DNA of 64,000 nucleotides from a virus (IMGVR_UViG_3300042477_000769), one strand, 5' to 3'; counted from the first letter of the stretch, positions 54,201 to 57,666 are shown. Notes: generated from the letters alone by a model not told the origin. Numbers and translations: made by a program.

Positions 54201-55215
54201 TATTATTTCTGCCCGACCACTAACCGGATTAATTCCCCTGAGACGAGATAAAGATGGTGCCCTAGCTATTGAATATGATAAAGATAAAGCAGAAGAAAAC
54301 GGTCTAGTTAAAATGGATACTTTAGGTCTCTCCACTTTAGATATTATTGGAGAAACTTATCGTATTATTAAAGAACGCGGCAAAGAAGTGCCTCCCGATC
54401 AATTAGATTATGATGTTCATGATGCTCCTTCTTATGATTTGATTGCTAATGGCGATACCTTTTGCGTCTTTCAATTAGGGACTAGTGCTGGTACCGTAGA
54501 CTTATGCCGTCGAATTAAACCAGATAGTATCAATGATTTAGCCAATATTAATGCCTTGGCCCGACCCTCCGCTCGTGAGATGAGAAATGATTTCATTAAA
54601 ACTAAAAATGGAGGTAAGCCGGTTGCTTTATTGCATTCTAAATTAGCTCGAGCTTTTAATAGTACTTATGGCTTCGGATTATATGAAGAATGTTTAATGT
54701 ATCTGGCTCAAGATATTGCTGGTTGGAGCTTGCACTCAGCTGATAGATTAAGAAAATTAACTAAAGAAAAAGGTAAGAATCCTAAAAAGGTCCAACAATG
54801 GAAAGCAGAATTTATTGCTGATTCTGTTAAAATGGGCGTTCAAGAATTAATTGCTCAACGTATATGGAGTGAGGTAATTGAGCCTTTCCAGGGATATGGG
54901 TTCAACCGTTCCTTGTCCCTTTTTGAAATGATTGATATATATTCTAATGATGGTAGATTTATAAAGTCTAAACCTATAGGAGAAGTAAAACCAGGAGAAT
55001 ATGTGCGTTCACGAGATGAAGCTACTCAAAAAGAGATTTTTGTCGAAGTAAAGGCGAATCATGATCATGGTATTTTACCTTTAGTAGAGGTAGAATTAGA
55101 AACCGGCGAAACAGTCAAATGTACTATGGATCATAAGTTTAGAATTCAAGAAAATAAAGAGATGGTGCCATTATGGCAAATCTTAAGAGACAATTTATCA
55201 ATAGTGTTAGGTTAA
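51229..55215 (+). CDS. dnaE: DNA polymerase III alpha, N-terminal fragment (PHP + polymerase) with one contiguous intein and a terminal split-intein N half
   Basis: SLHNQTDFS, VTDHG, GRG|S, PDIDTDF, STHAGG, VKMDTLGL, YEE, GYGFNR. Confidence 0.95.
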   Translation: MTDFVSLHNQTDFSILDSLMSPKALFNRAKELGQSAVAVTDHGTLAGAWDSLKASRETGVKLIMGCEIYFVEDAQNITDKFRHLTLLAKNANGYKNLLTLNKKGFDQGSFIGKRVYPIVDWKLLEQCYNGLICLTGCGNGIISQLLMNKKFDEVETTVLKLKQLFGDNLGIEILPNNMKRGSNIYNDEIDQQFLNMKLINLGKTHNIKIVPTCNAHYVKKEDHDIHDVFLAIGSHQPKYSNFRIKYNVPDFYLKSAEEVKNFFARNHGEELAEEWCNNTVYFANLCETPDWIDPKYSNPSGKELPIFPVKDETDYPEFVHWLELQPPEVKLLDIDKQYLRFKCQAAFSSRIKDLSPDNMENYQQRLLEELDVIEYHGFSSYMLIVADYINWARRNEIAVGEGRGCLTGDTQVLTTQGFKLIKDLSVTDTVFSHTGNMKTISKLFKFDVSNEKLLKFKTQQSFTDLTMTSDHKVLIAKSQDLDKYYFYPPKKVKGKIKSFNPHLEWVPAHQIKVGDYFFTPKLNRSIDNLSDIDLAQYSDSIIENDFIVSKIYFTSPLSLRALHKVSPISFESLRKIKNNKPIADTQINLLQQYLSSTGSSLQDFVNHKNYKYSRIQRFIKIDNDFAYLLGRWIGDGSFHGNKGISICFNSKDIVGREKIKSYLTKLGFYVCQENRKNNNTLLTVSNKAMYSLFKELFPNYHSSQTKHMPNIFRLFSDELIRHLLLGLLESDGCVNNYEKIKTTSQTLALQVKEALNYLSLPSSIYTEENPKRYQVATSTAFTIAFNGIKTKPNPHIHRTNQGFYSKVVSIVETTADFVYDFTVPDDHSYLTTSGIVHNSVGGSLIAFLLGIHQADPIKYDLIFARFHNKEKSSFPDIDTDFAPSGREKVQAYVRQKYGEEHVAHVSNVNTITPKVYVRDIARACELGGSREEAVRIGNDVADCIPSDIHSIDDALAKVPLFAEYCKKYPELEKYKSICGKYRAWSTHAGGIIISARPLTGLIPLRRDKDGALAIEYDKDKAEENGLVKMDTLGLSTLDIIGETYRIIKERGKEVPPDQLDYDVHDAPSYDLIANGDTFCVFQLGTSAGTVDLCRRIKPDSINDLANINALARPSAREMRNDFIKTKNGGKPVALLHSKLARAFNSTYGFGLYEECLMYLAQDIAGWSLHSADRLRKLTKEKGKNPKKVQQWKAEFIADSVKMGVQELIAQRIWSEVIEPFQGYGFNRSLSLFEMIDIYSNDGRFIKSKPIGEVKPGEYVRSRDEATQKEIFVEVKANHDHGILPLVEVELETGETVKCTMDHKFRIQENKEMVPLWQILRDNLSIVLG
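52441..53742 (+). mobile_element. Contiguous 434-aa intein with LAGLIDADG endonuclease
   Basis: GRG|CLTGDTQV ... MTSDHKV ... LLGRWIGDGS ... LLGLLESDG ... VYDFTV...SGIVHN|SVGG. Confidence 0.95.
54910..55212 (+). mobile_element. Split intein N-fragment (101 aa, starts with Ser)
   Basis: GFNR|SLSLFEMI...PIGEVKPGEYV...VKCTMDHKF followed by stop. Confidence 0.88.
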
Positions 55216-55216
55216 A

Positions 55217-56431
55217 ATGGGAAATGTCAGCAAACCAATAGATTATTATCTTCAAAAAATTCCAGAACCATTTAGATCAAATGTTTCTTTAATGGAAGAC
55301 TATCAAGGTAATAGAACTAAAATATCTTTTAATTTTTCATGTGGGTGTCAGATACAAGAACAATTTAAGGTTTTTCTTAAGAGGCCGCGATTTGATTTTT
55401 GCACCTCATGTGCTAAGAAAAATAGTCAAACTTATAGTTGTCAGTATTGCTGTCAAGAATTTACTGTGCAACGACATTTGGAAAATTGTCAGCAAAAATG
55501 CCAAAATAAATATGCACAACTCATTTTGGGTACAGATTATGTAATTTGCCAGATTTGTAATTTACATGCAAGAAGTCTAGGGGCACATGTTACTAAGAAG
55601 CACAATATATCTCATAAAGAATATCGTGAAAAATATGGAAGTTTAATTTGCACTGAGGCTTCTAAAAATTATAAAGAAAGCGGTCAATATAATAGAGAGT
55701 GGATTACTCGTGCTCATTTAAATGGCACAGATTTAACCGAATATAGAAAAAAGTTATCTACAGCTGTTAAAGAGGCAATAATGTCAAATCCGGAAGAACG
55801 AAAAAGACGTTCCGAGTTAATGGCTACTATTAATAAAACAGAGAATATGCGGATTAAATCTTCTAAATCGGCCAAAATAACCTCTGCTAAACCAGAAATT
55901 TTAGAAAAAAGAACTAAGCAATTACAAAAATGGAGAGAAGAAAACCCAGAGTTATTTTATAACCAATGTACCGCTCCAATGATTAAATCATTTCAAAGTA
56001 AACCAGAAAGAATATTATTTAATTATTTCTCGCAATTAAAACCTTTTAATTTTAAAAGAAACCAATTTATAAAATCTAAGTATTTTACTAATTTTTCTAA
56101 GAAGAAACAAGTAGATATAATTGATTTGGATAATAGAATTTATATAGAGTTTGATGGTAAAGTTCATTTTAAGCCTATTTTTGGCGATTCTGTTCTCTTA
56201 AAAACTAAATTAAGAGATCAAGAATTAGAAAAAGTTATTACATCTAACAATTGGATTCTAATTAGAATTAGCTACGATCAATTTGTTTATACTACTAAAA
56301 ATATTAATAAAATTAAACATGATGCATCTTATTTCAAACCAGAAAGCCTTCAACAAATAGAAGCAATACTTAAATCAAAGCAACCAGGTGTTTACAAAAT
56401 CGGAGAGGCATATAATAGCTCAAAATCATGA
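55217..56431 (+). CDS. Free-standing homing endonuclease (zinc fingers + helical linker + Vsr/EDxHD-like nuclease) between the split dnaE halves
   Basis: CQYC, CQIC...HVTKKH, SKPE, VDII...IEFDGKVHF, RD, LIRI; stop overlaps ATG 56428. Confidence 0.85.
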   Translation: MGNVSKPIDYYLQKIPEPFRSNVSLMEDYQGNRTKISFNFSCGCQIQEQFKVFLKRPRFDFCTSCAKKNSQTYSCQYCCQEFTVQRHLENCQQKCQNKYAQLILGTDYVICQICNLHARSLGAHVTKKHNISHKEYREKYGSLICTEASKNYKESGQYNREWITRAHLNGTDLTEYRKKLSTAVKEAIMSNPEERKRRSELMATINKTENMRIKSSKSAKITSAKPEILEKRTKQLQKWREENPELFYNQCTAPMIKSFQSKPERILFNYFSQLKPFNFKRNQFIKSKYFTNFSKKKQVDIIDLDNRIYIEFDGKVHFKPIFGDSVLLKTKLRDQELEKVITSNNWILIRISYDQFVYTTKNINKIKHDASYFKPESLQQIEAILKSKQPGVYKIGEAYNSSKS

Positions 56432-56538
56432 CTAATATTAAAACTATTAAATACATTGGCAATCATGCTACGTGTGATTTGGAAGTAGATCATCCGGATC
56501 ATCAATTCTACTTATCGAATGGAATGTTAACCTCAAAC
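56428..56538 (+). mobile_element. Split intein C-fragment (37 aa)
   Basis: MTNIKTIKYIGNHATCDLEVDHPDHQFYLSNGMLTSN|SHA. Confidence 0.88.
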
Positions 56539-57666
56539 TCTCATGCGGTCTTATATTCCATGACCAGTTATAAGACTTCTTATTTAAAGGCCCATTATCC
56601 GGTTGAGTTTTTATTGGCTAATTTAATGGCCGAAGTAAAATCTAATGCTCCAGATGCAGGGAGTAATATCAATAAAATTAAGAAAGAATTAAAAGCACAC
56701 AAGGTTAAGATTTCTCCTCCGGATATTAATTCGTCTAATTTGACTTATACTATTTCTGAAGGTAATAAATTATTAACCGGTTTAGATTCTTTAAAATTCG
56801 TGGGAGACGATGCGATTAAAGATATTATTCAAAAACGTCCTTTCAAAAGCTTTTTTGATTTCATGCATCGAGTGGATTCCAAAAAAGTCAGAGCTAATAG
56901 TATTCAAGCCTTAGCGGCAGCTGGTGCCTTAGAAAAATTTGGTATCCCTAGAAAGCTTATTTTCTTATATTGTTCAGATTTTAGAAAGAAATTACAAGTT
57001 TGGTTAAAGAAACATGACCCTCAACAAGAAGAGTTTATTTATCCTTGGCCTTCGGAACCGGATTGGTCATTGTCAGAACAATATGCGTTAGAGCAATATT
57101 ATTTAGGAGAATCTTTTATTTGTAAAGCGCCTGAGGCGTATGGTAAGTTTTTCAAAAGCCCTCATCATGTTATTTATGAAATTAAAAAAGCTAACAACAA
57201 AACCAAGATTTCGCCCATTAAAGGAATAGTTAAAGATTTCTTCGAATTCAAAGTTAAAAAAGAGACAAGTAGTTATTATGGTCAATCTATGGTGAAAGCT
57301 ATTATTGAAGATAAAGAAGGAGACCAATGCTCTTGTACTATTTTTCCAGATCGTTGGCAATTAATACAGAAACGATTAAAAGAATTAAATAGCAAAGCTA
57401 TATTTGATGTTGGCTTGGCTTTAAGTTTTTCTGGCAGTGTTAATACTTATGAAGATGAAGTTGGCATTATTTTAGAAGAATTATTAGATATTTCTCCAAT
57501 TCCAGCTTTACCTACTGATTTAAAAGCCAAGCGAGTCAATTTAAAGGAAGCTAAATTAAAAAATAAAGAGCCGGTGACTGAGGCGAAAAATGTTTTGGAT
57601 GAAATTGAAGATTTATTATATGATGAGGGTCTAATTGATTTAGATACCGATCCGGATAACGATTAA
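56428..57666 (+). CDS. dnaE: DNA polymerase III alpha, C-terminal fragment with N-terminal split-intein C half
   Basis: SHAVLY...YLKAHYPVEF, PPDINSS, GLDSLKFVG, OB-fold with TIFP. Confidence 0.93.
   Translation: MTNIKTIKYIGNHATCDLEVDHPDHQFYLSNGMLTSNSHAVLYSMTSYKTSYLKAHYPVEFLLANLMAEVKSNAPDAGSNINKIKKELKAHKVKISPPDINSSNLTYTISEGNKLLTGLDSLKFVGDDAIKDIIQKRPFKSFFDFMHRVDSKKVRANSIQALAAAGALEKFGIPRKLIFLYCSDFRKKLQVWLKKHDPQQEEFIYPWPSEPDWSLSEQYALEQYYLGESFICKAPEAYGKFFKSPHHVIYEIKKANNKTKISPIKGIVKDFFEFKVKKETSSYYGQSMVKAIIEDKEGDQCSCTIFPDRWQLIQKRLKELNSKAIFDVGLALSFSGSVNTYEDEVGIILEELLDISPIPALPTDLKAKRVNLKEAKLKNKEPVTEAKNVLDEIEDLLYDEGLIDLDTDPDND

Follow-up and report, generated by a model that had tools for sequence, protein, structure and literature searches.

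The window analysed here is a stretch of 64,000 nucleotides (nt) of viral DNA (IMGVR_UViG_3300042477_000769), low in G+C (~32%), phage-like and almost unidirectional in its coding, and without a DNA similarity match among the INPHARED phages. Our subject is its dnaE gene, which is spread over two plus-strand open reading frames (ORFs) with a third ORF between them. The first, dnaE-N (51229-55215; 1328 amino acids, aa), carries the Pfam domains PHP, DNA_pol3_alpha and DNA_pol3_finger and ends with FQGYGFNR, 101 further residues and a TAA stop codon (55213-55215). Those 101 residues (54910-55212), reading SLSLFEMIDIY...VKCTMDHKFR...LSIVLG, are the N-terminal half of an intein (IntN), delimited by a family alignment of 41 sequences and by profile matches to the Npu and Cfa DnaE split inteins; the codon of the first residue, Ser1, is tcc at 54910-54912, and the block-B residues C71-T72-M-D-H75 occupy 55120-55134. 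Only one base past the TAA, an ATG at 55217 opens a free-standing ORF of 404 aa (55217-56431, plus strand; hereafter the gap ORF), a putative homing endonuclease by its Pfam ROS_MUCR match, its assignment to phrog_559 and its structure model. The TGA of the gap ORF overlaps the ATG of dnaE-C by 4 nt, as ATGA (56428-56431). The dnaE-C ORF (412 aa from the ATG at 56428) opens with MTNIKTIKYIGNHATCDLEVDHPDHQFYLSNGMLTSN↓SHAVLYSM, where the arrow, here and below, marks a splice junction: its first 37 residues are the C-terminal intein half (IntC, 56428-56538, plus strand), defined in an alignment of 43 sequences, with Asp17 and His25 of block F and the block-G end NGMLTS36-N37 (Asn37, 56536-56538). 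The C-terminal extein follows on the same strand (56539-57666; 375 aa plus stop), starting at Ser+1 (codon tct, 56539-56541) with SHAVLYSM, as placed by the junction alignment, and containing Pfam HHH_6.

A second intein lies further upstream within dnaE-N, so that the N-terminal extein is itself in two parts, all on the plus strand. Part 1 (51229-52440; aa 1-404) holds the PHP domain and the start of the Pol III (DNA polymerase III) alpha domain and ends in VGEGRG, as placed by Pfam and by a gap-free alignment to an intein-less homologue, P0204. It is followed by a contiguous, cis-arranged intein (52441-53742; 434 aa, aa 405-838) with the Pfam domains Hint, Intein_splicing and LAGLIDADG_3, its limits computed in the same P0204 alignment and its junctions, GEGRG↓CLTGDT...VHN↓SVGGS, showing Cys1 and Ser+1. 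Part 2 (53743-54909) comprises the rest of the Pol III alpha and finger regions (Pfam DNA_pol3_alpha and DNA_pol3_finger), ends in FQGYGFNR, and is 89% identical to P0204 over the 320 aa next to the split site.

Thirty-eight intein-less homologues carry an intact GYGFNx↓SHA motif at the position where the window's gene is split, within the sequence FQGYGFN(V/M/A/Q/K/L/I)↓SH(A/S)VLYSM. In-silico excision of the split intein together with the upstream cis intein yields a DnaE of 1168 aa, which aligns end to end with the 1172 aa of P0204 at 81% identity, with a sole gap of four residues near the C-terminus and none at either junction. The boundaries of the intein are thus fixed by the intein-less homologues and by the gap-free junction alignment of the spliced product. 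A preliminary description of this locus had read a dnaE stop after GYGFNR plus a 101-aa IntN, and a next ORF beginning with a 37-aa IntC that ends in TSN↓SHAV, which is indeed how the sequence reads; it had also proposed that trans-splicing would restore the YGFN(K/R)SHA motif, and the in-silico product bears this out at the junction. Among the intein-less alleles, P0233 reads GYGFNA↓AHAV, with Ala replacing the otherwise invariant Ser at +1; it had come up as an "Ala1" member of the intein family and was rejected as such, being an intein-less allele with Ala at +1. An allele of the P0233 type, if invaded, could not support splicing.

The arrangement is a property of the DNA and not of its assembly. 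The stretch carrying the locus was found in many lake-water metagenome runs, with the identical sequence recurring, and contigs from runs other than the likely source span both the IntN/gap-ORF and the gap-ORF/IntC junctions with 0 differences and no joints. Because these independent contigs bridge both junctions, an assembly artefact is ruled out. Neither a deletion nor a joined form was seen in the contigs of four lake runs, in which uncovered bins are uninformative.

Both halves retain the residues of a class-1 HINT intein, and the window holds the full catalytic set: Ser1, Thr72/His75, Asp17/His25, Asn37 and Ser+1. The block-A nucleophile is present as Ser1, and residue 1 is Ser, Cys or Thr throughout the family, never a non-nucleophile; in the T-x-x-H of block B, His75 is invariant and Thr72 is kept in at least 90% of 41 diverse IntN sequences. 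In 43 IntC sequences Asp17, His25 (block F), Ser36, Asn37 and Ser+1 are all invariant. Profiles of either half find DnaE split inteins of the cyanobacterial type as their best solved matches, namely 7qil, 4lx3 and 2keq (Npu/Cfa; E 2e-7 to 8e-7) for IntN and the Npu chain 4lx3_B (E 5e-5) for IntC.

These results agree with the preliminary description in its central assignment, a split class-1 intein with Ser1 and Ser+1 at the dnaE site FN(K/R)↓SH, and modify it in three respects. The intein had been called distinct, which is true of its site and its nucleophiles and less so of its halves, both of which resemble cyanobacterial DnaE split inteins more than any other solved structure. The penultimate Ser had been offered as a distinguishing mark, a claim that falls since the highly active Npu DnaE IntC has the same residue (4lx3_B, ending NGFIASN). 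Lastly, the intein had been described as lacking a catalytic Cys. The junction residues are indeed Ser, yet a cysteine directly precedes the block-B Thr (Cys71, in K-C-T-x-x-H; 55120-55122) and is kept without exception in the 41 IntN sequences, members with Cys1 and Thr1 among them, and the window's IntC has a cysteine at position 16, where most relatives have Tyr. The label "cysteine-less" must therefore be qualified: the junction nucleophiles are Ser, and non-junction cysteines stand in both halves. The counterpart of Cys71 is Ala in Npu DnaE and in the cis intein of phage Grayson, and the pattern of substitution suggests a small buried residue with a replaceable structural role and not a nucleophile. 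The preliminary description had further put forward, as conjecture, that the intein may be independent of reductant and orthogonal to other inteins, and that it may be essential for phage replication.

The gap ORF consists of an N-terminal Cys-rich region with a Ros/MucR-type zinc finger, a helical middle part and a C-terminal Vsr-like nuclease domain (aa ~259-398). Pfam recognises the zinc finger only (aa 105-141), as did single-sequence and seven-sequence profile searches against PDB sequences, and with Foldseek McrC and Vsr came up at weak E-values only (2e-3 to 7e-2); in PHROGs the protein falls into phrog_559, and among its 42 homologues one has been named very-short-patch-repair endonuclease by JGI (the Joint Genome Institute). 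An AlphaFold model built with those 42 homologues reached a mean pLDDT (predicted local distance difference test) of 91.8. As sequence profiles and Foldseek fell short, the assignment of a Vsr-like fold is made from the VIA-align fold comparison, in which aa 259-398 match E. coli Vsr (1cw0) with a Z score of 11.9 (root-mean-square deviation, rmsd, 2.7 Å, 118 residues aligned), the DUF559-like protein 3hrl with Z 10.2 (rmsd 2.0 Å, 91 aligned) and the catalytic domain of I-Bth0305I (3r3p) with Z 10.2 (rmsd 2.7 Å, 96/97 aligned). Asp300, Glu311, Asp313 and His317 are invariant in a 43-sequence alignment, and the same profile is matched by 31 of 35 gap ORFs from related viral loci. With both the fold and the acidic and His active-site residues present in the model, the gap ORF is predicted to be a Vsr-like (EDxHD) homing endonuclease.

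A related protein lies elsewhere in the window, where a single ORF at 59429-61324 (631 aa) reads without a stop from an N-terminal endonuclease into a complete RecA; the endonuclease part, which like the gap ORF falls in phrog_559 (E 3e-44), combines a zinc ribbon (DUF4379) with a domain of DUF559/Vsr-like type.

The gap ORF stands between adjacent, same-strand halves of a split gene, and the locus is therefore a "fractured gene" of the kind defined by Dassa et al. (2009), with an endonuclease of Vsr-like type and a layout matching theirs. The preliminary description had likewise pointed to fractured phage genes with an endonuclease between the intein halves. The same order of IntN, gap ORF and IntC, with the overlap, recurs at more than 30 related loci. 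Because Vsr-like endonucleases are found in group I introns too (I-Bth0305I in recA is one; PMC2677866; PMC3239194), and because natural cis versions of this intein exist, one might suppose that the intervening 1.2 kb are an intron of group I or II with an endonuclease ORF, removed as RNA to leave a contiguous, cis-splicing mini-intein. We consider this extremely improbable. A search of 54500-57000 against Rfam with E values up to 1 gave no intron or other structured-RNA family, only a chance match resembling a small nucleolar RNA, and the tight abutment of the gap ORF with its neighbours leaves no non-coding room for a ribozyme core. Folding of the two junction regions was no better than that of shuffled sequences (z -0.3 and -0.2). 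Moreover, IntN closes with a stop of its own and IntC opens with a conserved Met of its own, as is seen in known split inteins, and there are relatives whose halves lie only 5-257 nt apart with no ORF between them.

We thus read the locus as a fractured dnaE of a freshwater giant phage, whose Pol III-type alpha subunit is made as two polypeptides and joined post-translationally by a naturally split class-1 HINT intein, and we put the probability of this reading at roughly 85%. It builds on what is observed, that is, on the anatomy of the locus and its exact boundaries, the conservation of catalytic residues, the distribution of the family, the fold of the endonuclease and the patchy presence of the intein. 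From these we infer the splicing chemistry, the association of the halves and the activity and target of the endonuclease. IntN (101 aa) and IntC (37 aa) would associate and fold as one HINT domain; an N-to-O acyl shift at Ser1, aided by Thr72 and His75 of block B, would give an oxyester, which Ser+1 would attack in a transesterification; cyclisation of Asn37 would then free the intein, and an O-to-N shift would restore the peptide bond within GYGFNR-SHAVLYSM. The upstream LAGLIDADG intein would have to splice in cis, and the cis and trans events together would yield a mature DnaE of ~1168 aa. The endonuclease presumably moves the whole cassette of IntN, endonuclease and IntC into empty dnaE alleles; alternatively, the arrangement may have originated when the endonuclease invaded and broke a pre-existing mini-intein.

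Several points weigh against splicing at the locus, or at least against efficient splicing. The penultimate His of block G is absent, with the invariant Ser36 in its place, this His being a frequent but non-obligatory feature of class-1 inteins. Splicing by Ser1/Ser+1 inteins is as a rule slower than by Cys inteins, and poor splicing is known from some of the natural split inteins (PMC11923092). Association of the halves, on the other hand, is favoured by the predicted complex of IntN (with 8 extein residues) and IntC (with 13), which scored 0.63, against 0.00 for the best of three controls, a mark reached by 58 of 80 solved complexes and by 2 of 110 mismatched pairs, but this score may reflect likeness to the solved Npu split-intein complexes and would then be no independent proof of binding. 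The prediction runs agreed in at least 86% of contacts, with a partner pLDDT of at least 64, and the predicted interface is extensive.

Such an interface would also serve if the intein halves were association domains only, holding the DnaE fragments together without forming a peptide bond. A non-covalent solution of this sort has been described for a fractured phage ribonucleotide reductase, NrdA (PMC3045599), and Ser nucleophiles combined with a missing penultimate His could reduce the efficiency of splicing. What has been conserved over 40-90 diverged sequences, however, is the chemistry (Ser/Cys/Thr1, Thr72, His75, Asp17, His25, Asn37 and Ser+1) and not merely the interface; without splicing, furthermore, the invariant YGFNxSHA motif would stay broken by ~138 residues. 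We therefore regard a purely associative role as unlikely, though it is the most probable of the alternatives to trans-splicing.

A single transcript probably serves all three ORFs, with coupled translation, given the 1-nt gap, the ATGA overlap, the lack of a plus-strand terminator within the locus and the absence of any promoter-like excess (in a scan for promoters and terminators, counts did not exceed those of shuffled sequence). Intact and tightly coupled as they are, the three ORFs speak against a decaying, non-functional dnaE, broken by endonuclease invasion in a phage that replicates with another polymerase. In favour of decay, dnaE has taken in two selfish insertions, and the 64 kb examined belong to a much larger genome, elsewhere in which another polymerase could lie. 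The exteins, on the other hand, are 81-89% identical to intact intein-less homologues and free of frameshifts; the split architecture, its catalytic residues kept, is found in more than 40 IMG/VR loci as well as in ~70 distinct representatives of clusters; and the identical sequence occurs in many lake metagenome runs. Decay is, in our view, distinctly improbable, and we continue with trans-splicing as the preferred reading.

The intein belongs to a large and varied family. Among the 120 best DnaE-C cluster representatives, at least 94 open with the same 37-aa IntC ending in [TS]SN↓SH, and the 120 best matches to the DnaE-N tail include ~70 split inteins, 6 cis mini-inteins and 38 empty alleles. 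Residue 1 is Ser in 65 cases, against 12 with Cys and 2 with Thr. The cis mini-inteins are contiguous, 145-152 aa long, made of the same two halves and inserted at the same site. In IMG/VR the IntC profile matched 56 loci, on contigs of up to 459 kb; ~43 are cleanly split and 2 in cis, with residue 1 as Ser in 29, Cys in 12 and Thr in 4; these counts are approximate, as the census was made by regular expression and ~5 loci were mis-parsed (IntN lengths of 5-50). Thr is an unusual N-terminal nucleophile for inteins, and the split inteins that have it (P0138 and P0148; L029, L044 and L052, with the beginnings TLALFE.., TVTEDE.. and TLYHYE.. among them) are otherwise intact.

In eight IMG/VR loci (L027, L028, L029, L031, L054, L056, L065 and L066, of which L054 shares a contig with L019), the stop of IntN is followed after 5-257 nt by the start of IntC, and the space between holds no endonuclease ORF; in the model of Dassa et al. 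such adjacent halves would be the stage after endonuclease loss. In L034, L035 and P0181, the IntN ORF extends 266 aa beyond the splice site, sharing 4 nt with the start of IntC, and the extension looks like an endonuclease or a remnant of one that has been fused in frame with IntN.

When one genome for each of 185,579 prokaryote species was searched with the IntC profile, the sole match was a 3.2-kb contig of a metagenome-assembled genome (MAG), and the family therefore looks phage-restricted. That contig (L022; JAAUSR010000189.1) is a low-coverage member of a MAG labelled Thioploca sp. and is probably a binned phage fragment.

The intein is also patchily distributed with respect to its host gene. 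A maximum-likelihood tree with 117 rows, computed from the 320 residues of extein upstream of the site, gives the window intein-less alleles as nearest neighbours, the closest of them 89% identical, and the presence or absence of the intein requires ~15 changes, at least 6 of them forced by well-supported branches. The sample was picked by similarity to the query and the search for the tree was a quick one, so that these numbers of changes are indicative only. The distribution fits repeated homing, precise loss or both.

The closest precedent is the set of 26-27 fractured loci described by Dassa et al. (2009; NAR 37:2560; PMC2677866), which includes three DnaE loci from the Global Ocean Sampling (DnaE-1, DnaE-2 and DnaE-3) along with gp41-1, NrdJ-1 and IMPDH-1. 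The integration points of those DnaE split inteins differ among themselves and also from that in cyanobacteria; DnaE-2 has a Vsr-like endonuclease and DnaE-1 an extra in-frame intein (PMC2677866). As in these loci, the halves of the window's intein are encoded by neighbouring ORFs on one strand, in a replication gene of phage-like character, and the free-standing homing endonuclease gene between them runs with its 3' end into the start of the C-terminal ORF. The window's integration site is likewise non-cyanobacterial; the locus shares the Vsr-like endonuclease with DnaE-2 and an additional in-frame intein upstream with DnaE-1. Two differences stand out. The catalytic set of Dassa et al. was described with Cys1, whereas Ser1 is found here and holds the majority in a family that counts more than 100 members; and RNA folding of the junctions reveals no hairpin upstream of the endonuclease that would sequester a ribosome-binding site. 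The locus agrees in kind with their description, and its intein may be an allele of one of the Dassa DnaE loci.

The DnaE split inteins of cyanobacteria sit at Y↓CFNK with Cys1 and Cys+1, and their halves are encoded at distant loci with no endonuclease. The window's intein shares with them (Npu, Ssp and the consensus Cfa; 4lx3, 4kl5, 2keq, 1zd7 and 7qil) the host protein, the canonical split point with fragments of ~101-102 and 36-37 aa, and the motifs T-x-D-H-K-F, DH-x-F and NG-x-x-x-SN. It departs from them in its site, FNR↓SH, four residues downstream, in its Ser1 and Ser+1, in the adjacency of its ORFs with an endonuclease and in its phage host.

Natural split inteins without cysteine are described as rare and so far come from PolB: Aes123 PolB1 (CL/CLm), CP21 PolB1, LCGC14 PolB2 and GOM-OPS-1 PolB2 (PMC11923092; PMC12707363). 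The window's intein is like them in having only Ser or Thr at positions 1 and +1, which implies oxyester chemistry, and in its phage origin and canonical split site. Their hosts are B-family polymerases and their IntN fragments have 115-120 aa with an extra beta-hairpin, unlike the 101-aa IntN in DnaE here. The window's intein is also nearer to Npu than to PolB16 (E 0.02-0.1) and, set beside the PolB inteins, carries the invariant Cys71. The gap ORF, for its part, has the Vsr-like nuclease fold of the I-Bth0305I or Vsr-like (EDxHD) family (3r3p; PMC3239194), with the Glu, Asp and His residues invariant. I-Bth0305I, by contrast, is encoded in an intron in recA, while the gap ORF stands free between intein halves and differs in its N-terminal DNA-binding part, made up of the Ros/MucR-type zinc finger and the Cys-rich region.

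Among cultured phages, the Rhodococcus phages Grayson (MH153812), Peregrin and Weasels2 have a cis mini-intein at the same DnaE site (YSFNK↓...HN↓SHSVAYS), with an IntC and adjoining extein 36-41% identical to those of the window. This intein differs from the window's in being contiguous, in its Cys1 and penultimate His, and in the absence of an endonuclease ORF. Grayson dnaE (L021; MH153812, 62069-65801) is annotated as two overlapping coding sequences, genes 102 and 103, and the second contains the cis mini-intein at FNK↓SH (Cys1, THN↓S), which is unannotated in the record.

Split DnaE fractured loci at non-cyanobacterial sites with Vsr-like endonucleases have been known since 2009 (PMC2677866), and the arrangement as such is not new. 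The Ser-based family of DnaE split inteins appears to be both large and uncharacterised: a full-text literature search for the IntC motif strings gave no paper, the supplements of Pinto 2020 contained no member of the family, and a search of the literature on split DnaE inteins in huge or jumbo phages found nothing specific. It is tempting to speculate, and we do so tentatively, since we would not give it even odds, that these inteins form a phage-borne lineage, as yet undescribed and sister to the DnaE split inteins of cyanobacteria, which natively uses oxyester chemistry (Ser1/Ser+1). The lineage would then offer a natural series of Ser1, Cys1 and Thr1 isoforms, of split inteins with and without endonuclease, of cis mini-inteins and of empty alleles. 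Were its members to splice efficiently, they would make up the first family of split inteins outside PolB that is independent of cysteine, and probably one orthogonal to the CL, CLm and LCGC14 inteins. Such a lineage could also plausibly be the source of the split dnaE of cyanobacteria.

For protein engineering, the family holds many natural Ser1/Ser+1 pairs in a compact 101+37 architecture like that of the ultrafast relatives of Npu DnaE, and its natural Cys1 and Thr1 variants amount to a mutational series for the choice of nucleophile. We judge the biotechnological interest to be moderate, and Cys71 bears on any label of "cysteine-independent".

For the biology of these phages, the family is a well-populated example of an essential replication gene that a homing endonuclease has presumably broken apart and whose protein would be kept functional by a split intein. 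All evolutionary stages are held within this one family, from the empty site and the cis mini-intein to the split intein with its endonuclease and the split intein after endonuclease loss, and the patchiness of the intein on the tree of its host gene is the signature of ongoing mobility.

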